Shown in pieces: positions 1 through 59,533 of a stretch of 64,000 nucleotides of DNA. Positions within the stretch are counted from its first letter, which is position 1. Each line of letters begins with the position of its first letter. The position numbers were made by a program, and so were the translations under genes. The notes under the pieces were generated by a model. That model was not told where the DNA came from. It did no database searches and worked only from the letters and a program-made list of their open reading frames with translations. Source of the DNA: Microcoleus sp. (GTDB taxonomy: Bacteria; Cyanobacteriota; Cyanobacteriia; Cyanobacteriales; Microcoleaceae); the NCBI GenBank assembly GCA_042408215.1, contig JAYFMW010000005.1, forward strand, positions 384,001 through 448,000, written 5' to 3'.

Positions 1-704
1 TTGTCTTCTTCAATCAGTTTATTGGTGTTAATACACAACAAAGCATCGTGAGCTTCGACGTCGTTGCAAGAAATATAGTGAGAATCATTAGTAGCGACTA
101 TTTTAATGTTGAGTTCGCGAGCGATTTTCACAATTTCAACATTCACAATCCGGTCTTCTTGGGAACCGTGGTCTTGAATTTCTAAATAGTAATCTTCCCC
201 AAATACTTCTTGATACCATTGGGCGACTTCGCGGGCGACATCTAGCTTGTTTTGCAGAATCATTTGGGGAACTTCGCCGCCCAAACAAGCGCTGGTAACA
301 ATTAAGCCTTCGGAGTATTGTTTTAGGAGTTCTTTATTGATGCAAGGGCGGGCAAAAATACCTCTTTCGGGCATTCCCTTTAAATGGGAAATTGTGGTAA
401 GCTTTACTAAGTTTTTATAACCTTGGGTATTTTTAGCTAAAACAACTTGATGGTATTTTCTTCTACCTCGAACTTTTACTTCAATGTCGCCGTTGACGAC
501 GTACATTTCGTTGCCAATAATCGGCTTAATATTTTTATTTCGACAAACTTTGATGAGTTCGATCGCCCCATACATCACCCCGTGGTCCGTAAGGGCGATC
601 GCGGGCATCCCCAATTCTACCGCCCGTTCAGCTAGCTGCTGTAGCTGAGACGCCCCGTCTAGCAGGCTATAATCGCTGTGAATGTGCAAACCAACGAAGG
701 ACAT
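1..704 (-). CDS. dnaE: DNA polymerase III alpha subunit, N-terminal (PHP) part; runs off the window edge
   Basis: Manual translation from ATG at 704: [17 protein letters not shown]...[12 protein letters not shown]...; not in the ORF track because it is truncated by the window. Confidence 0.95.
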
Positions 705-29217: not shown

Positions 29218-29369
29218 TAACTACAGATAACGGGTAGGGACACGGCAATGCCGTGTCCCTACTGTACTTCATAAACCTGGAATACGCTGTAAACTTGTTT
29301 GGCATTCTTCAATTAACCGTACTGGCGATCGCTACGCATCTAATTACTGTTTCAGTAGACAACGGTGGA

Positions 29370-30644
29370 CTAAGCGAAATAACTGTATCCATCGACGCGG
29401 TGGACCCCTCGGCAATATTTAGCTCTAACTGGGCTAACTTTGCCGAGTGGTGTCACCATTTCAAATACCCCCGTAGCCCGAACGGTTAATCGCCCAACAT
29501 GAGTTCCAGCAAATTTACCGACGGGAAGAATAGCACGAACTATATCGCCAGTCTGAAAGCCAAAAAATGCTTTTTGTCTGGTGCGGTGTCGGATGGGAAA
29601 ACCGTGCTTATTGGTAATGCAGAGTTGGTGATTTCCCCATCCCTTCGCTGTCATTAGTAGGGGTTTAGCACACACTATTTTTAACTTTTCTACAATACCA
29701 ACACAAGCGGCATCTAACCAATGTGATTTAGGGATACCCAGTTTGGTGCGATTGAACTTAGTTCTTCCACCAGTCCCCACTTCCACTGACAACCCTGTCG
29801 CCAGAAGCTTTCGATACAATTCCCATCGCGTAGAGTTAACAGCAGCGGCATCTTTCCGCAGTCCCTTGGATTGCGCCAGAATCTTTTTAAGTTTTTCTGG
29901 TTGGTTTTTCAAGAAGTCTTTAATGTCCGCAGCCCCTTTTTTTTGGTTGCAATCACGGCAAGCAATACAAAGGTTTGATATGCGATTAGTGCCTCCTTTT
30001 GATTTAGGGGTAATATGCTCGACCTCAAGCGGCACATCTTTCTTGTTGCAGTAGGCACAAGTTCTTTCCCATTTCTCCAGTAAATACTCTCGCACTTCAT
30101 AACCAAACAACTCGCCTTGCTGATATTCAATGCCGGAGATTTCTGGGCGATCTATTTGCTGTAAATCAAACCGGACTAATTCCTGAGAAATACCTGTGAT
30201 TGGGGCAAATTTTCTGAGCCTATTCACCCAAGTTAATGTAGTTTTCACTCGGTGTTCAAGACTAGGAGCTAACCACCCTTTTTTGCGGGTTCTATTGAGA
30301 AATCGTGGTTGACGATAACGAGTTTTACGGTGCCGCCGATTACGACGAATAGCTCGGCGCGATTCCAGCGAATTTTTGATAGCTTGCCCGCGATGGGTTA
30401 ATTCAGCCCCCCAAATAACTGCCTCATTTGATACCAATGCTAGGCCAGTAGTTTGAGAGCCTGGATCTATTTTTAACTGGAGCGGGTGGGTTGCTTCTAT
30501 TGATGTAGTTTTGAGGATAATCGCAAAAGGAAAACGACGATAGACGGCAGCTTTTCCTTGCGTAAGAAGTAAACGTGCCAAACAAGGATGAATGGGATTA
30601 AGGGGACGTTTGTTGGTATCAATGACAAACACAAAGTTAGACAT
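29370..30644 (-). CDS. iscB: RNA-guided endonuclease IscB (PLMP, RuvC, RRXRR bridge helix, HNH)
   Basis: PLNPIHP, IDPGS, RR-x-RR...RYRQPRF-x-NR, QELVRFD, CAYC...EVEH...CRDCN, HWLDAAC; catalytic residues intact. Confidence 0.95.
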   Translation of the reverse strand: MSNFVFVIDTNKRPLNPIHPCLARLLLTQGKAAVYRRFPFAIILKTTSIEATHPLQLKIDPGSQTTGLALVSNEAVIWGAELTHRGQAIKNSLESRRAIRRNRRHRKTRYRQPRFLNRTRKKGWLAPSLEHRVKTTLTWVNRLRKFAPITGISQELVRFDLQQIDRPEISGIEYQQGELFGYEVREYLLEKWERTCAYCNKKDVPLEVEHITPKSKGGTNRISNLCIACRDCNQKKGAADIKDFLKNQPEKLKKILAQSKGLRKDAAAVNSTRWELYRKLLATGLSVEVGTGGRTKFNRTKLGIPKSHWLDAACVGIVEKLKIVCAKPLLMTAKGWGNHQLCITNKHGFPIRHRTRQKAFFGFQTGDIVRAILPVGKFAGTHVGRLTVRATGVFEMVTPLGKVSPVRAKYCRGVHRVDGYSYFA

Positions 30645-30649
30645 GATTG

Positions 30650-30882
30650 ATTTGAAACTCTGATTTCTCAGGTAATTTTTTCCTCGTCAAGGTTACTCAG
30701 GCTTGTGATGCTCAACTCACTTTCTTAGCTAAATATGAATGTTTAAAGTTGAGCGACAGAGCAAAAAGCTGGAAAGCACTCCTTGGTGTCGTGACCGAAG
30801 TAACGTAGCCATCAAAGGCTGAGACTGGCTATTTCTCCACTGACTGTACTGGTTGTCAGGCTTTGTCAGTGTTTAGTGGATA
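30650..30882 (-). ncRNA. omegaRNA (HEARO-like) of IscB element 1
   Basis: ctacgtt...gtcacgacacc...gtgc-x2-ccagct...ctctgtcg...ttaaaca...acaagcc...aac motifs shared with the other omegaRNAs in the window; lies directly upstream of iscB. Confidence 0.85.
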
Positions 30883-31973
30883 GCGATTCCATGCTGATAA
30901 TAGGCTGCACAAGCACCTTCAGAAGAAACCATTGGTGCTCCGAGTGGCCGTTCGGGTGTACAGGCTTTGCCAAAGCTCGGACATTCATGGGGTTTGCGCG
31001 TTCCTTGCAATATTAAACCGCTAATACAGAGTGGTGATTCGCGCACTTCGCTAGACTGGAAAGCAGCACAATCGAATCTATTTTGAGCATCAAATTTTGC
31101 ATACTTTTCTTTAAGTTTTAGTCCACTCTGAGGAATTTCTTCTAGACCTCGCCATTGCCTAGATGTAGCTTCAAAAACTTCATTAATCATGGCGATCGCC
31201 TGTTGGTTTCCTGCTCTTTTTACAGAACGTGCATATTGATTTTCTACTTCGGCTTTACCTGTTTCTAACTGTTTCACACAGAGATAAATCCCTTGGAGAA
31301 TATCGATCGGCTCAAAACCTGTGACGATGATCGGAACTTGAAATCGATCGGCGATCGCTTCATATTCGGTATATCCCATCACTGTGCAAACATGACCGGC
31401 TGCCAAAAATCCTTGCATGGTGCGATCGGGTGAGCTTAAAATTGCGGTCATGGCTGGTGGTACAAGCACATGAGCGCAGAGAATGGAAAAGTTGTCTAAG
31501 CCTAAATGGGCGGCTTGGGCGATCGCTAAAGCAGTCGTTGGGGCTGTGGTTTCAAAGCCTACGGCAAAAAATACGACTTGCGTCTGGGGATGTTGTCCGG
31601 CCAATTTAACCGCATCGAGAGGAGAATAGACCATGCGTACATCTGCACCAGAAGCCTTGGCGCGCAATAAGTCGGTGGTGCTACCGGGGACGCGCAACAT
31701 ATCGCCAAAAGAGCATAATATTACGTCTGGATGGGCAGCGATCGCGATCGCCCGATCGATTAGTTGAATCGGCGTGACGCAGACTGGACAACCAGGCCCG
31801 TGAATCAGGGTGATCTCTTTAGGAATAAGGCGATCGATGCCGTATTTGACGATCGTGTGAGTTTGTCCGCCGCAAATTTCCATCAATGTCCAAGGGCGGG
31901 TTGTAATTGCGGCGATCGCCTGTGCGTATTCCTGGGCGAGTTTAGCATCGCGGTATTCATCAATATATTTCAT
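30873..31973 (-). CDS. hypD: Hydrogenase maturation protein HypD
   Basis: [36 protein letters not shown]; last codons supplied by the IscB element. Confidence 0.96.
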
Positions 31974-37337: not shown

Positions 37338-38297
37338 TTTTTTGAGTTCTTTAAGTAATGTTTAATGGAGCGGTTTACCAAGAATGCAATGCTCGCAACT
37401 GGGGTGTTTTTTTCGACTGGTGGGCTTCCATCCGAGTCAGGACATCATCCAGAATGGTGATGGCTTCAGCAATAAACGGGCCTTTATTTAACATGACGCA
37501 CTCAGCGCGTTCAGCCATTGCTGCATCCGTCATCTCTCCCCGTGAAGGTGCTCCATTTTTGACCAAGCTTTCTAGCACTTGCGTTGCCCAGATTACAGGA
37601 ACATGAGCTGCTTCGCAAAGCCAGAGAATTTCTTCTTGAATCTCGCTCAATCGTTGGTATCCGATTTCAACGGCTAAGTCACCTCTAGCAATCATCACGC
37701 CAAATGATTGTTTACCCGCCGCATGAATGATTAATTCTGGCAGATTACAAACCGCGATCGAAGTTTCAATCTTTGCCACGATCGCCGGACTGGTTAAACT
37801 TCCTCCTAAACGGCGATTCAACTCTTGTTGAAGTAACTCAATATCGGCCGCTCGCTGCACAAAAGAGTAACCAATAATATCTGCGTGAATGGCGACAAAA
37901 TCCAGGTCACATAAATCTTTCGCAGTCAGGGGACTAAGCGGCAAGATTGTGTTCGGAAAATTTAACCCCTTTTCGGGTCGAAGTTTGACCCCTTTTGGGC
38001 TAGCATGAGTAACTTGCAATAACAGTCCTAGTTGCCCATCTGGTAATGGGAATTGAGTGTCAATCACGCGAGTCCGTATCTTGCCATCATCAATATACAG
38101 GGGTGCGTCAACAACTAATAAATCGAGAATTTCGGGAACCGTACAGCAAAATTGGAAATTGTCTACAGGTGATGGGATTGGCTCACCTGACTCTACTTCA
38201 CTTCCGGGTTCAGGTACGCACCGCGACAGCAAGATCCTGACGGTGTTACGCTTTACAACCCTGAACAAACAGGGCATACGCGATAGCAATACTCTCA

Positions 38298-39455
38298 CTA
38301 TTGATAGAGAGAGCTCTCGTAGCCGTCCCTCAAAGCTCGAATCATAATGTTTCGAGCGCCGCCCCAATCTCGGTCATGTTCGTGACCGCAGTTGGGGCAT
38401 TTAAATGTTTTTGAACCACCAAGCTTTGAATGTTTGTGTCCGCATTTGGTGCAAGTTTTGCTAGTGTAGGATTCGTTAACGTCAATAACAACAACACCCC
38501 GTTTTTTAGCTGATTGCTTGAGGTGGCATTCAAAACGATAATGCCCCCAAGTGAGCATCTGCCTAGCAGTCTTGGTGCGTAACTTGCGCTTTGATTTAAC
38601 AACCATTTGTGATGTTTCAAATGTAGGCAGCAATATGACTTTGTATTGACTTGTCAGGTAATTAACTACCTGCTTGTGGCACTCATCAACTAAGTTGCGA
38701 ATCCTGATTCTCAGCTTGCTTGCCGCTTTTAGCATCCGGCGTTTCTGCTTTCTACTAGCTTTTGACACACGTCCCATTAGTTTGTCAAGGTGAGAACACA
38801 ATCTTTGAATGCGTCCAATGTCTGCCTTACCAAATTCTTGAAATGAGTCACCGTCGTAGCCAGTTAAAAAAGTTCTAACGCCAGGGTCAAGTGCAATTAC
38901 CTTATCCAGTTCCTTCGTCCTCACCTCTTCTGTTACTGGGATACAAGCGAACCATCGCTTTTTGTCTCTAATAAGTTGGGTCGCAAACTCGGTCTTTTGA
39001 ATTGGCTCTGTACTTCTAAAGCTAAGCCCTTTAACTAAGGATGGGAACCAAGTCTCGCCGTTGAAATTAACCTTGTGGAATTTGATTGATTGCGAGGGTT
39101 GACGGCAACTCCTAAAATTTGCCTCTCCTTTTACAAACTTGGCTTGTTTCCAGGCATCCCAAGCGTCAAAAATAGCATTTTCTTTTGGGTGAGACGGTGC
39201 TGACTTAACCCAATCAGGTAAGTCCAGTCCTAACACGTAGTCCCTCAAAGAATAAGCACTGGTTATTTTTTCGCCTGCTTTCAAGGCTGCAATAGCCTTG
39301 TTGTAGCAGTAACGCGATGCTGATAGCCAAGACTTCCATTTTTGGTGCAGTCCCAGCTCAGGATAAACCCGAATCTTAAGTGTTTTGTTGGGCGACTTCT
39401 TCTCCTTCTTGTGCCTTGGATTCGACTTGTAACTCCTGCTTGATTTGGTTTTCAA
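38298..39455 (-). CDS. tnpB: TnpB (IS607-type)
   Basis: LKIRVYP, ALDPGVRTF, LPTFETSQM, ESYTSKTC-x2-CG, C-x2-CG-x3-DRD-x-GGARN; TTG start at 39455 inferred, overlapping the tnpA end. Confidence 0.9.
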   Translation of the reverse strand: MKTKSSRSYKSNPRHKKEKKSPNKTLKIRVYPELGLHQKWKSWLSASRYCYNKAIAALKAGEKITSAYSLRDYVLGLDLPDWVKSAPSHPKENAIFDAWDAWKQAKFVKGEANFRSCRQPSQSIKFHKVNFNGETWFPSLVKGLSFRSTEPIQKTEFATQLIRDKKRWFACIPVTEEVRTKELDKVIALDPGVRTFLTGYDGDSFQEFGKADIGRIQRLCSHLDKLMGRVSKASRKQKRRMLKAASKLRIRIRNLVDECHKQVVNYLTSQYKVILLPTFETSQMVVKSKRKLRTKTARQMLTWGHYRFECHLKQSAKKRGVVVIDVNESYTSKTCTKCGHKHSKLGGSKTFKCPNCGHEHDRDWGGARNIMIRALRDGYESSLYQ

Positions 39456-40003
39456 GTCTTCTAATGGAGTAAAGTCGGCTGGAAAAGCTGTGGAGGATTG
39501 CGACGATATCTTGAACGAGTTCGGCGTGTGGAGAGAGACTGATTTGGTTGAGAACCACGATTTTGCAGTCAAATTGCTCACAGAGCCATTCGATAATGTC
39601 GAATCCGAATCTTGCAAGTCGGTCTTTGTGGGGCAACCACAATAATTGCGATATCACCTCGCAGAACTCGTCCCAAAAGCTTGATGAGTCCTTTCCTCCT
39701 AAAATTGAGTCCTCCTCCCACTTCCTTAACGACTTCAGCGCCTGGGTAGAGCGTTGATAGTCGTTCAACTTGTCGATCGAGGTCTGCCTTTTGTGGTCTG
39801 GTAGAGACGCGAGCATAGACAACAGTGGCGCGTCCAGAGTCTGGCTCTGATTCCTGTTTGATGAACTTTTCGATGTCGTACCGTCTTTGACCTGACGGCG
39901 TTTTGACGGTGGAGATATTGCCGTTTGCTTCCCATCGTCTGAGGGTTCGCAGGCAAACTCCCAGAGTGTTAGCTGCTTCATTGGGTTTCACATATTTAGC
40001 CAT
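39376..40003 (-). pseudogene. tnpA: IS607 transposase TnpA (MerR-type HTH + serine recombinase) with +1 frameshift
   Basis: GVCLRTLRRWE HTH, YARVST catalytic Ser, VVA|HKDRLARFGF joined by removing one base of the G4 run at 39630-39633. Confidence 0.9.
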
Positions 40004-40827
40004 AGGAAAACTTTCGCACCATATGTGCTTGTTGTCCAGCTTTTTCCAATTAATTAATTATTAGAGGCTAACCGATCGCCTCGAAACACCCGTTTTTGAG
40101 CCCGTGGCGCAAGTACCGATCCCGTGCGGATTTTGGGGCCTCCTAAGTCCATCATCACTTTACAACAGGTTCCGAGCTCCTGTTCCGCTTGACGAATACG
40201 ATCGATCATGCGCTCCCATACCTCGGTGGAATCGTGGGCGCAGTTAATTCGCAAGCAGTTAGCACCCCGTCGGACAAGTTCTCGCACAAAAGCATAGTCT
40301 GTGGCAGCTTCGGTAGGTAATGTGACCATAATTCTGACTTGGCGATGAGTCAAGGTTGGCCCGAATAATTCCTCGGTGTGCTGTCGCAGTAAACGATTCC
40401 CCTCAAAAAAGGACTCGATCGCAGGGCGGTGGAGCACCTCGTCAGAGTCTTTGCCGCAAATGACTTGCAATGTGGCAATAACGGCATCGAGATTGGGCAT
40501 TACCCGCGCTTCAATCCGTCCTAAGGATGATAAGCCCCAAGGCATTAGAGCGGCTTGGAGTTCGCGTAGATCGTGCTGTCGTAATGCTAGATACTGAGCT
40601 AAATTCAAAGCACTAGAAAGAAACTCAGTCCGCTGAATGTGCGATCGCCATTGGCTAAAGGTGGCTTGTCCTTCGCTTTCAACAGTCTGTCGCAGTGCTT
40701 GCAGAGTCGATAGCAAGACCTGTGGACTAGATAGATGCAACGGTTTAGCACTAAGTTCTTTCATTTGGGCTAATCATAGATCAAAGACTCCTGAGTAGAT
40801 GCGCGCGACCTTTGAACTCAATTATAT

Positions 40828-42648: not shown

Positions 42649-42739
42649 GTCAGCACCCCGCTCTTTCAGAGACGGGGCCATTACAGCCTCCAACTTTAGA
42701 TAGCTGACCAGCCTAAGTCCCGCCAGGACTAGGTTTAAC
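42649..42739 (+). ncRNA. 5' fragment of an IS200/IS605-type HEARO/omegaRNA, truncated by a nested IS
   Basis: gtcagcaccccgctctttcagagacggggc...ctgaccagcctaagtc...gacta, same layout as the element starting at 55265. Confidence 0.65.
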
Positions 42740-43158
42740 CAATGCGAACGGCAAGTCCCGCACTCTATCCGTTTACAGGATGAGTGACGGGATGAAAGCG
42801 CAGCCCAAAATAAATTGAGCGGTAGAGAATCAAGATCAATTCTATCTGCTATAATAATCTAATCAGCATTCGACAATCTCGATAAATGTATAGAGCCTAC
42901 AAATACAGAATCTCTCCCACAAGTGAGCAATAAACCTTGCTTGCAAAGTCTTTCGGCTGTGCGAGATGGTTCTGGAACTATGCTCTAAACCTATGTCAAG
43001 AAACTTATAAGAATACTGGGAAGGCGTTATCTAGAGGATACATACAAGGCTTGCTTCCTGCGCTCAAAAAAGAATATGAATGGTTAAAAGAACCATATTC
43101 TCAATGTCTGCAAGTCGTAGCTTTGAATCTATCAACTGCCTATAAAAACTTCTTTGAC
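42740..43158 (+). pseudogene. Left end and 5' fragment of a tnpB element (internal stop; truncated by the next IS)
   Basis: MYRAYKYRISPTSEQ*TLLAKSFGCARWFWNYAL...AYKNFFD from ATG 42886; TAA at 42931-42933; inserted after TTAAC. Confidence 0.8.
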
Positions 43159-55264: not shown

Positions 55265-55668
55265 GTCAGGAACCTCAGCCTAAAGGCATGAGGCTTGAAA
55301 GAGAAATCAACCCAAGCCATTCTGACCAGACCACCTAGCAAATAGGTAGCCGTTACTTGAGTCACGACACCCTGTGGATGCGAAGCTAGTCCCCTCCTCT
55401 GTCGCTAGTAGTTAAACAGTCTTAAGGTCACTGAGACAGTGCTGCGAGCAACGACAAGCTCTTGTAACAGGTCGAAGCTAACATTACCCCGCAAGGGAGG
55501 CTACTTAGTAGCAAAACACTATGCGTACAGGGCTGCAAGATTTGAAACGGTAACTGTCCCGTTGAAAGTGCAATACAAAGGTACACCGAACTCTTGCAGT
55601 TCCAAGGCGGTAGTGGCAAGAAATGTAAAGCCGTCCTAAAAGGACGGGGTTTCAAACCCATTTTTCTG
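55265..55668 (+). mobile_element. Protein-less IS200/IS605-type element carrying a complete HEARO/omegaRNA (internally deleted IscB element)
   Basis: Starts gtcaggaacctcagcctaaaggcatgaggcttg...ctgaccag...gtcacgacaccctg...ctctgtcg...ttaaacag...acaagc; ends aaagccgtcctaaaaggacggggtttcaaacccatttttctg, followed by ATGAC. Confidence 0.82.
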
Positions 55669-55872
55669 ATGACAATGACTAATTTTTCCGATCGTATTAG
55701 CATATTCTGGTTATAGACGATCGTTTTTTAGCCTCGTAGCCAAGGAAAGTTGTGAACGGCAAAATATGGCGATCGCCACAGTCGTGGAGTATTCCCGCTT
55801 TCCCTGTCAGTCAGCTATGGAACGCGATCGCACCAAACTAGAATTCATCGTCACCGCAAGGGAGCAGAAGTA

Positions 55873-57865: not shown

Positions 57866-57872
57866 TTATAGC

Positions 57873-58105
57873 TATCCGCGAACCACTGGACAAACCTGGA
57901 CAATCCAGAGAAATCCTTGGTAGAGATAGCCCGGTTAAGTCTAACCACAGACTACGTTAAGAAGGTCACGACACCCTGTGAGTGCTTGCCAGCTCCTTGC
58001 TCTGTCGCTACCAGTTAAACATCTTTATTTCGCTAAGGAAGTGCTGCTAGTCTGACAAGCCCTCTTAACATTACCAAGGCAAAAATCACCCGATTATTCG
58101 GAGGC
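57873..58105 (+). ncRNA. omegaRNA (HEARO-like) of IscB element 2
   Basis: gactacgtt...ggtcacgacaccctg...gtgcttgccagctc...ctctgtcg...agttaaaca...gacaagcc...aacatt motifs directly upstream of iscB. Confidence 0.85.
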
Positions 58106-58110
58106 TCAAT

Positions 58111-59448
58111 ATGAGCAAAATATTCGTTGTAGACACCAACAAAAATCCTCTAAATCCTATCCATCCAGGCCGATCCAGGATGCTGCTTCAAGAGGGCAAA
58201 GCCGCTGTCTGGAAACGTTACCCGTTCACCATCATCCTGAAAGATGTTCTACCAAATCCCCAAATTGCACCCTGGCGATTAAAAATAGATCCTGGTGCTA
58301 AATTGACTGGCTTAGCACTGGTAGATGATGCAACAGGAGAAGTAGTTTGGGCCGCCGAACTAGAACATAGAGGCTTTCAAATTCGCGATGCTTTAACCAA
58401 ACGCCGCCAGTTAAGAAGAGGAAGACGCCATCGAAAAACTCGGTATCGTCAACCACGCTTTGATAACCGGAAACGCCCTACAGGGTGGCTCCCACCCAGT
58501 CTGCAAAGCCGAGTTGAGAATATCGTAACTTGGGTTCGTAGGTTACAAAAGCTAGCGTTGATTTCTGATATTTCTCAGGAATTAGTCAAGTTTGACACTC
58601 AACTCATGGAGAATCCAGACATCAGTGGAGTCGCATACCAACAAGGTGAGTTAGCTGGTTACGAAGTGCGAGAATTTCTGCTTTTCAAATTCAATCATAC
58701 CTGTATGTACTGTGGGGCTAAAGATACTCGTTTGGAGATTGAGCATCTTTTACCGAAGTCTAAAGGTGGTTCAAATAGAATTAGTAATTTAGGCATTGCT
58801 TGTAGGAATTGCAACCAAAAAAAAGGCCGTCAAGCTCTCAGAGAATTTTTAGCCCAAAAACCTGACTTGTTACAGCGCATTCTGAGACAAGTAAAACAAC
58901 AGAAAGCCGACACTGCTGCCGTTAATTCTACCCGTTGGGCATTATTTAATCGACTCAAAGAGACTGGATTATCCGTGGAAGTTGGGACTGGTGGGCGGAC
59001 AAAGTTTAACCGATGTCGTCAAAACCTACCTAAAACTCACTGGCTGGATGCTGCCTGTGTTGGGGCATCTACACCCCTCAAACTAAAAGTTTCAGGGGTA
59101 GTGCCGCTGTCAATAAGGGCTGTTGGTTATGGAAATCGTCAAATGTGTCAAGTTGACAAATTTGGCTTTCCTAAGCGTGGTAAGGAAGGTAAGCTAATCA
59201 AACGTGAGCGACAGAAAAATTACTTTGGTTTTCAAACGGGCGACATGGTTAAAGCTATTGTTCCTACTGGGAAACACGCTGGTACTCACGTTGGTAAAGT
59301 CACCGTCAGAAAATCCGGTGCATTTGATTTGACTGTGGCTCATGTGCGCTTGCAGAGTATTCGTTGGAAGCACTGCCGCGCGGTGAACCGCTTTGATGGT
59401 TACAGTTATGCCTCTTTGTCCACCAATGTCGAGTTTTTAAACGATTAG
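58111..59448 (+). CDS. iscB: RNA-guided endonuclease IscB
   Basis: PLNPIHP, IDPGA, RRQLRRGRR...RYRQPRFDNR, QELVKFD, CMYC...EIEH...CRNCN, HWLDAAC; catalytic residues intact. Confidence 0.95.
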   Translation: MSKIFVVDTNKNPLNPIHPGRSRMLLQEGKAAVWKRYPFTIILKDVLPNPQIAPWRLKIDPGAKLTGLALVDDATGEVVWAAELEHRGFQIRDALTKRRQLRRGRRHRKTRYRQPRFDNRKRPTGWLPPSLQSRVENIVTWVRRLQKLALISDISQELVKFDTQLMENPDISGVAYQQGELAGYEVREFLLFKFNHTCMYCGAKDTRLEIEHLLPKSKGGSNRISNLGIACRNCNQKKGRQALREFLAQKPDLLQRILRQVKQQKADTAAVNSTRWALFNRLKETGLSVEVGTGGRTKFNRCRQNLPKTHWLDAACVGASTPLKLKVSGVVPLSIRAVGYGNRQMCQVDKFGFPKRGKEGKLIKRERQKNYFGFQTGDMVKAIVPTGKHAGTHVGKVTVRKSGAFDLTVAHVRLQSIRWKHCRAVNRFDGYSYASLSTNVEFLND

Positions 59449-59533
59449 AGGCGTACCGATCGCCTTCATGCTGAGGACAAATTAAAACCCAGAAAGCTAG
59501 GGGCAATTTATGAATTTCCTCTAGCTTTCTCTA

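Follow-up and report, generated by a model that had tools for sequence, protein, structure and literature searches.

Which transposase moves the iscB genes of a cyanobacterium-like genome? The question is raised by the 64,000-bp stretch of DNA analysed here (the window, G000:C5:384001-448000, where G000 is the window's own genome, scanned over 14.7 million positions), which carries two IscB elements, IscB1 and IscB2, and one IS607-family element. Cas9 is descended from IscB, whose natural role is bound up with the transposon in which it resides. The comparison of ends indicates, with good confidence, that IscB1 and IscB2 belong to a non-autonomous lineage of the IS607 (serine-recombinase) type, in which the cargo is IscB and its omegaRNA instead of TnpB and which would be mobilised by a serine TnpA. 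The empty sites of both elements contain the sequence GCGATCGC, the highly iterated palindrome (HIP1) of cyanobacteria, which occurs 5123 times in G000.

Boundaries of the IscB and IS607 elements

The ends are named after IS607. The left-end side adjoins tnpA in IS607 and follows the iscB stop codon in the IscB elements, whereas the right-end side is the omegaRNA side. The following features of the three elements were located in the window (ORF, open reading frame; TAM, target-adjacent motif).

57873..59455, plus strand: IscB2 element proper, 1583 bp (1585 bp with one junction dinucleotide); empty site in G008:C139
57871..57872, plus strand: right-end-side junction dinucleotide GC of IscB2, single in the empty site and identical with the first two paired bases of omegaRNA helix P1
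57871..58089, plus strand: IscB2 omegaRNA (HEARO, RF02033), cmscan 101.7 bits, model positions 1-211
57887-57893 and 57897-57903, plus strand: two TGGACAA boxes at the omegaRNA end of IscB2, 10 bp apart and in the register of the IS607 right-end boxes
58111..59448, plus strand: iscB2 ORF, 445 aa, RRXRR/RuvC and HNH (Pfam PF14239, 2.6e-71; HNH families)
59416..59455, plus strand: left-end-type terminus of IscB2, with TTGTCCA (59416-59422), ATGTCGA (59426-59432) and the terminal GATTAGAGGCGTA (59443-59455)
59456..59464, plus strand: left-end-side dinucleotide CC of IscB2 and GATCGCC, the rest of the HIP1 target and the predicted TAM side
29333..30882, minus strand: IscB1 element proper, 1550 bp, with GC at 30883-30884 and 29331-29332, then GATCGCC at 29324-29330
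30672..30884, minus strand: IscB1 omegaRNA (HEARO), cmscan 111 bits
29370..30644, minus strand: iscB1 ORF, 424 aa, RRXRR (Pfam, 1.5e-73) and HNH
38238..40071, minus strand: IS607-family element, 1834 bp, with CC at both junctions (38236-38237 and 40072-40073)
38298-39617, minus strand: IS607 tnpB (Pfam)
39376-40003, minus strand: IS607 tnpA (Pfam; MerR-type helix-turn-helix and resolvase), frameshifted

The HEARO matches of IscB1 and IscB2 score above the Rfam RF02033 gathering score, and each lies upstream of its iscB. The final codons of iscB2 overlap the left-end-type boxes. The IS607 element splits a pyruvate kinase gene into two parts (40054-40764 and 37375-38367), and this gene is uninterrupted in the genomes G008 and G005.

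Empty alleles of all three elements were found in G008, a close relative of G000 with flanks that are 93-99% identical. With slashes at the element boundaries, the IscB2 site reads ATTATA-GC/TATCC...GCGTA/CC-GATCGCC when occupied and ATTATA-GC-GATCGCC when empty (G008:C139). The IscB1 site reads GGAATC-GC/TATCC...GCGTA/GC-GATCGCC and GGAATC-GC-GATCGCC (G008:C401), and the IS607 site CAAGAT-CC/TGACGG...GGCTAA/CC-GATCGCC and CAAGAT-CC-GATCGCC (G008:C175), respectively. The same empty IS607 site is implied by alignment coordinates alone in G005:C116. Four public environmental runs were examined as Logan contigs. In three of them (X11, X2 and X3) position 57871 is joined to 59457, so that 1585 bases are skipped, equal to the 1583-bp IscB2 element and one dinucleotide, whereas the fourth, X15, has no joint across the IscB2 site; X11 and X15 are RNA libraries, and presence there is no evidence of transcription. 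A 99.7% identical copy of IscB2 on G000:C21 has only positions 57868-59462 in common with the window, and a 98.5% copy of the IS607 element lies on G000:C26.

An initial annotation of the window had proposed the boundaries of IscB1 and IscB2 used here. All sequences and coordinates that it quoted are present in the window, and its boundaries are exact: the empty alleles of G008, the skip in three runs and the other copies agree, and no hairpin ends lie just outside.

Two other readings of the boundaries were rejected. GATCGCC is not a part of the elements but flanking sequence, because at the IS607 site it belongs to the coding sequence of pyruvate kinase, whose reading frame is restored by removal of the element; it is also present in all three empty sites. 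A crossover at the TA within GC-TA-TCC and GCG-TA-CC was ruled out by the C21 copy, which has no TA before its GC.

The HIP1 site occupied by IscB1 lies within the last codons of hypD (window 30873-30890, minus strand). The hypD product of the occupied allele ends in QHGIAIH, with its stop codon inside the IscB1 element, whereas that of the empty G008 allele ends in QHGIAIASTVN; the insertion has therefore replaced the last HypD residues.

Junction dinucleotides and the HIP1 target

The target of IscB1 and IscB2 is read as GC^GATCGC. As in the IS607 family, no target-site duplication was found, and a dinucleotide is present at each of the two junctions but only once when the site is empty. The junction pairs are GC/GC for IscB1 and CC/CC for IS607, whereas IscB2 has the mismatched pair GC/CC, as do some IS607 copies. 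Where an empty allele is available (three sites), the target and the right-end side have the same dinucleotide (GC, GC and CC). The left-end-side dinucleotide is constant within an element lineage, CC in IscB2 and GC in IscB1, and all four sites of the IscB2 lineage (G000:C5, G000:C21, G008:C370 and G005:C615) have GC...CC. In one preprint, a clostridial IS607-family TnpA given a non-canonical donor dinucleotide is described as forming mismatched left and right products, in which the left-end dinucleotide is always that of the donor (10.1101/2023.11.20.567912).

The pattern recurs among 80 IscB loci from other genomes, belonging to many cyanobacterial genera, which were searched with nhmmer profiles of both end types. 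At least one box-type end was found in 37 of the 80 loci and both ends in 28. In 30/30 related loci the omegaRNA end is preceded by the dinucleotide GC, and the left-type end is followed by GC (18), CC (9), CT (4), GG (2), GT (1) or TC (1) among 35. The next six bases are GATCGC in 27/35 and GATCG[GT] in 5/35, compared with a background of 0.0014 per position for GATCGC. Within G000, GATCGC follows the dinucleotide at five of six ends. All IS607 copies whose junctions were read have CC and then GATCG after the left end, and the dinucleotide before their right end is CC (window, C26, G001, G006 and G004) or GC (G009, G068, G019, G048 and G057). No description of HIP1 as a transposon landing site or TAM, or as the target of an IscB element, was found in the literature searched.

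Homology of the left ends

The 40 element-internal bases of the IS607 left end were compared with all positions of G000. Only 11 positions in the whole genome match at 26/40 or better. Four of them are unrelated sequences, two are the IS607 copies (40/40) and five are ends of IscB elements, aligned in exact register; IscB-element ends thus account for five of the nine best non-self matches. These ends score 28 (C30), 28 (C3), 27 (IscB2), 27 (the C21 copy) and 26 (IscB1) of 40. The gapless 40-nt alignment put forward in the initial annotation is thus beyond chance genome-wide, at 26-28/40 in register.

IS607 copies that are 91-98% identical to that of the window occur in other genomes of the genus. 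The IS607 left end of G068 matches the C30-type IscB end at 38/43, the last 30 bases being identical, and matches IscB1 and IscB2 at 29/43; IscB2 and the G019 element likewise match at 29/43. The left ends of both kinds of element share the terminus (G)ATTAGAGGC(G)TA and a pair of T(T/A)GTC(C) boxes, the first bases of which lie 40 and 30 bases from the junction. In G000 the pattern TTAGA[GT]G[CT]-1..3-[GC]CGATCG occurs nine times, eight of which are IS607 or IscB-type ends and one of which is unrelated. Sequence evidence that the 3' end of the IscB elements is homologous to the IS607 left end is therefore strong.

A solo left-end-type fragment, TTGTCCAGTTTTTAATCGATTAGAGGCGTA/GC-GATCGCC, lies directly after an unrelated ORF at G000:C19:98775-98830 (minus strand). 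It has no HEARO or iscB upstream and is probably a remnant.

The omegaRNA side and orientation

The right-end boxes are TTTACAA and TGAACAA in the window IS607 and TGTACAA/TGGACAA in its relatives. IscB2 has TGGACAA twice, at distances from the junction that equal those of the IS607 right-end boxes. The subterminal motifs typical of the IS607 family are thus found at both ends of the IscB elements, as a TG(G)ACAA pair 10 bp apart at the omegaRNA end and a T(T/A)GTC(C/G/T) pair 10 bp apart at the opposite end.

In fixed register, IscB2 matches three IS607 right ends at 19-22/33 (genome-wide fraction 6e-5 to 6e-7). The comparison is informative only at fixed register: a free 33-mer right-end scan of G000 did not single out the IscB ends, and the best unrelated matches reached 22-23/33. 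The alignment of the omegaRNA side with the IS607 right end, also part of the initial annotation, is accordingly significant for the IscB2 lineage and holds at box level only for IscB1, C30 and C3. The likeness to IS607 on this side consists in the sequence, number and spacing of the boxes and is weaker than the homology of the left ends.

Alignment with IS607 from end to end confirms the orientation that had been proposed, with transcription of iscB starting on the right-end side and proceeding to the left-end side, against the direction of tnpA and tnpB. The guide would therefore be copied from the right-end flank, and it is predicted to come from the sequence 5' of 57871 in IscB2 and 5' of 30884 in IscB1. 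P1 begins with two pairs that involve the fixed GC.

Mobility and probable source of the transposase

Copies of the IscB2 lineage that are at least 98% identical occupy four different sites in G000, G008 and G005, and IscB1 occupies two, the second being a 98% copy at G008:C169. The IscB2-lineage copy at G005:C615 (L025/L040) measures 2457 bp between its ends, an excess of about 870 bp; the additional sequence splits the omegaRNA region and resembles nested insertions.

The elements are non-autonomous, as had been supposed: neither IscB1 nor IscB2 contains a serine tnpA ORF, and none of the 80 related loci carries one inside. Membership in the IS607 family is therefore possible only as a non-autonomous derivative. 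A search of the same loci for iscB next to a serine tnpA did not bear out such an association. Only L084 had one, and it was rejected as a partner in cis, as it lies on the far side of plsX in an element of its own, and the IscB there is of hairpin type. Putative mobilisation in trans by an IS607 serine TnpA is well supported by the sequence of the ends and targets, and each prediction of the proposal that concerns sequence was borne out. Intact ORFs for the cognate TnpA, of 205-209 aa, are present in G009, G004, G019, G001, G006, G048, G057 and G011.

Several observations weigh against this reading. At the right end, IscB1, C30 and C3 match IS607 at only 12-16/33 (fraction 0.1 to 0.0025), because their boxes are shifted by one base. 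A short stem is present at the 5' end of the IscB elements, which leaves a hairpin-reading enzyme a slight formal chance. The cognate tnpA is broken by frameshifts in both IS607 copies of G000, and no cognate IS607 was found in G008, which carries IscB1 and IscB2 at other sites and whose assembly is only 83% complete. In a survey of 79 genomes of the genus, the IscB-type end pattern (at most one mismatch) was found in 41, whereas the cognate IS607 (E <= 1e-50) was found in only 11; the pattern occurs in 31 of the 68 genomes without a cognate IS607. It is also present in 10 of the 11 with one, at least one hit being the IS607's own left end in G019, G001, G068 and G011. Homologues of the serine transposase, TnpA(Ser), occur in all five named carrier genomes from other genera, but a matching left-end terminus was found at only 1 of 18 TnpA(Ser) loci there, and that tnpA has two stops. 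No abutted left-end/right-end junction, as expected of a circle or tandem, was found in any of the 79 genus assemblies. The absence of the cognate IS607 from many carriers means that IscB elements often outlive, or do not need, the cognate partner. These partner-poor carriers are the main weakness of the claim of mobilisation in trans.

The many carrier genomes without cognate IS607 also speak for a mobiliser outside the cognate lineage, the ends being IS607-derived and recognised by another serine TnpA paralogue with similar TGTCC boxes, or by another recombinase. Full-length, stop-free TnpA(Ser) paralogues with 49-58% identity are encoded in G000 (C2, C30, C1 and C17), and a pair of TGTCC-type boxes with a spacing of 10-11 bp is likewise present at their left ends. 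However, the terminal 12-30 nt of the IscB ends are common only to the cognate lineage, and the paralogues have ATTTAGTTAG-type ends, which were not seen next to GATCGC. A mobiliser of this kind is considered unlikely. It is very unlikely that the elements are immobile relics, that is, old recombinants of IscB with IS607 ends which are kept by vertical descent or by IscB-driven gene conversion. The broken cognate tnpA of G000 would fit such a history, as would the decayed fragments, of which C19 has a solo end and C6 a truncated copy. Near-identical copies at four unrelated sites and precise empty alleles among genomes with flanks of 95-99% identity do not: an element cannot reach a non-homologous site by gene conversion.

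Comparison with the hairpin-type HEARO elements

The serine-recombinase reading was also compared with the way in which most HEARO elements of G000 are built. The window itself contains one element of this other type.

55265..55672, plus strand: HEARO-only miniature of IS605 type, 408 bp, without iscB; HEARO match 55265-55487, cmscan 118 bits

This element starts with GTCAGG and a hairpin, has GC-rich stems of 7-8 bp at both ends and ends in CTGATGA, which matches the ending of published cyanobacterial ISC elements as far as these are described in PMC4810608. A 98.8% copy lies on G000:C7, and dozens of copies at 72-85% are spread across G000. A total of 70 HEARO matches were found in G000, of which the weakest (partial) was left out and 69 were classified by their start. 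A GTCA-like start was found in 60, and visual inspection reveals a GC-rich hairpin in most of the starts displayed. Six others have GCTAT and boxes at the start, namely IscB1, IscB2, the C21 copy, C30, a 405-bp element without iscB on C3 and the truncated C6 copy. The remaining starts are GACTTAC (2/69) and a partial match (1/69). About 40 of the 70 HEARO matches have no iscB behind them. The proteins of IscB1 and IscB2 are 55-67% identical to the IS605-type IscB copies of G000.

The GC-rich hairpins of 55265-55672 are absent from the ends of IscB1 and IscB2. The DNA fold of the IscB 3' ends is not significant (z -1.3 and +0.65), and that of the IS607 left end is likewise flat (z -0.06). Folding is seen at the 5' ends of IscB1 and IscB2 (z -2.1 and -3.1), where the omegaRNA P1 helix forms together with a stem of 5-7 bp that includes the second box; a comparable CCCTG/CAGGG stem surrounds the second box of the IS607 right end. 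The statement in the initial annotation that the IscB elements have no hairpin ends thus stands for the 3' ends and for hairpins of IS605 type, but the 5' ends fold through P1 and the short stem. In the Rfam alignment of IscB2 the outer helix P1 is kept (GCUAUC pairs with GAUAGC), whereas the model's first inner hairpin is missing and the box region stands in its place.

That IscB1 and IscB2 are ISC/IS200-IS605 elements of the ordinary sort, transposed in single-stranded form by a Y1 (HUH) TnpA that reads short end stems and inserts by a fixed motif (...GATCG), would agree with the 5-7 bp stem at their 5' end, with the approximately 20 Y1_Tnp matches and 60 IS605-type HEARO elements of G000 and with the fixed motif on one flank that is also typical of the IS605 elements treated in PMC4810608, but it is highly improbable given the lack of a significant 3' fold, ends that have nothing in common with the GTCA...hairpin and ...CTGATGA ends of the IS605-type elements of G000 and are homologous to those of a resolvase-encoding element, a target and dinucleotide pattern equal to that of IS607, and the poor fit of the ISC targets given in PMC4810608 (GT/GG, GT/GA, TT/GG and N/ATGA).

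A tree was built from the long ORFs that follow HEARO elements; 19 of 26 matched IscB1 and were entered, and seven unrelated ORFs were dropped. Four rows of GCTAT type and one long-branched row of GTCA type form one group (96% SH-aLRT). Two rows with a GACTTAC start, first classed as type 1, have box-type ends. The GCTAT-type IscB elements may have a single origin.

The GACTTAC start belongs to a third kind of IscB element, at G000:C7:92425-93934 and G000:C14:55647-57156, which opens with GACTTAC...CTAGACA and closes with a GAGTTAGAGGTTAA-like end that is preceded by two TGTC(G/C) boxes at 10-bp spacing and does not adjoin GATCGC. It may represent a second IS607-like end type with another target.

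Proposed mechanism

The serine-recombinase reading of IscB1 and IscB2 suggests the following cycle. A serine TnpA supplied in trans, most likely from the IS607 lineage of 38238-40071, which is intact in related genomes, would bind the helically phased TGTCC/GGACA boxes, two of them about 24-40 bp inside the end on the 3' side of iscB and two 15-31 bp inside the omegaRNA end. The element would be excised as a double-stranded circle by exchange at the junction dinucleotide. Integration would take place at the outer GC of GCGATCGC, with the left-end equivalent next to GATCGC; this pattern is seen at the insertion sites, and serine TnpA would be the enzyme. In the omegaRNA, a guide taken from the right-end flank would precede the scaffold, with the fixed GC as part of the first scaffold helix. 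The rejoined donor would consist of the flank and GCGATCGC, and a HIP1-like 3' TAM is predicted for this reason. IscB would cut the donor there, using this TAM, and the element would be restored by homologous repair. The role of the nuclease is proposed by analogy with IscB of IS605 elements and TnpB of IS607 elements.

It is somewhat favoured that an IscB/omegaRNA lineage switched from one transposase superfamily to another, that the hairpin inside P1 was exchanged for serine-TnpA boxes, and that HIP1 serves both as integration site and as TAM. In that case the same approximately 35 bp would be a protein-binding transposon end in DNA and part of a guide-RNA scaffold, and the partnerships between OMEGA nucleases and transposases would be modular for IscB as they are for TnpB.

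Relation to known elements

Helically phased subterminal motifs and an exchange dinucleotide are given as hallmarks of IS607 ends in the part of PMC6188088 that deals with them. The IscB elements resemble the IS607 family (IS607, IS1535, ISXfa1 and the clostridial IStrons) in that they have no terminal inverted repeats, subterminal motifs about 10 bp apart, an exchange dinucleotide at both junctions and once in the empty site, and a preferred motif upstream of the dinucleotide on the left-end side. Further likenesses are an RNA-guided nuclease with a guide from the right-end flank (predicted for the IscB elements), fixed junction bases that are absorbed into the RNA scaffold (compare PMC10711439) and IscB left ends with direct homology to those of an IS607 lineage from the same genus. 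They differ from this family in their cargo, IscB and a HEARO omegaRNA read from the right end inward, whereas tnpB is read towards the right end, in the lack of tnpA (0/80 loci) and in the target, which is GC or CC beside GATCGC (HIP1) as opposed to the GG or TGGG of the members studied.

The ISC elements described by Kapitonov et al. (2016, PMC4810608) have hairpin termini, are mobilised by Y1 TnpA and, in the passages on their targets, insert at GT/GG, GT/GA, TT/GG and N/ATGA. For IS605-type IscB elements the preprint of Meers et al. (PMC10055086) describes the topology seen here, with an omegaRNA that is bounded by the right end. IscB1 and IscB2 share with these IS200/IS605 (ISC/IscB-HEARO) elements the IscB family and the same upstream omegaRNA family bounded by the right end. 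They are likewise non-autonomous, and standalone omegaRNA miniatures exist as derivatives, the box-type example being at C3:172214. Unlike the ISC elements, they have direct-repeat boxes instead of subterminal hairpins, a junction dinucleotide and a HIP1 target instead of one of the published 4-nt targets, and ends homologous to those of a resolvase element. An IscB with an upstream HEARO omegaRNA is thus found as in ISC elements, whereas hairpins at both ends and a published target are not.

The literature consulted assigns IscB to Y1/IS200-IS605 elements only. In the sections of PMC10055086 on transposase association, tnpB but not iscB is found with serine resolvases. As summarised by Altae-Tran et al. 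(2023, PMC10691335) in the part that treats both nucleases, IscB, unlike TnpB, is not strongly associated with either transposase, and the evidence list of a 2026 review places IscB under IS605 only (PMC13565253). The published surveys scored neighbouring genes and were therefore blind to non-autonomous elements. No description of IscB elements with IS607-type ends was found in the literature searched, which excludes Altae-Tran et al. 2021 with its supplements and Weinberg et al. 2009. Comparison at the sequence level supports the view that the elements extend a known kind, as putative non-autonomous IS607-type elements with an IscB/omegaRNA cargo and a HIP1 target.

If the ends are read in this way, IscB, like TnpB, would be coupled to both transposition chemistries, and the model in which a guide RNA protects the donor site becomes testable for IscB with a double-strand, circle-forming transposase. 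The reading also predicts an IscB with an 8-bp palindromic TAM, makes HIP1 a transposon landing pad and provides natural element pairs whose omegaRNA 5' domains would differ only in the module for transposase recognition.

Other HEARO matches

Two further HEARO matches were noted. A hairpin-type HEARO outside the window, at G000:C5:369767-370010, lies approximately 140 bp after the tnpB of another IS607-family element (tnpA/tnpB, C5:368018-369623). A weak partial HEARO match is present in the window at 42649-42759 (plus strand; 32.6 bits, E 1.5e-4 in the whole-genome search).

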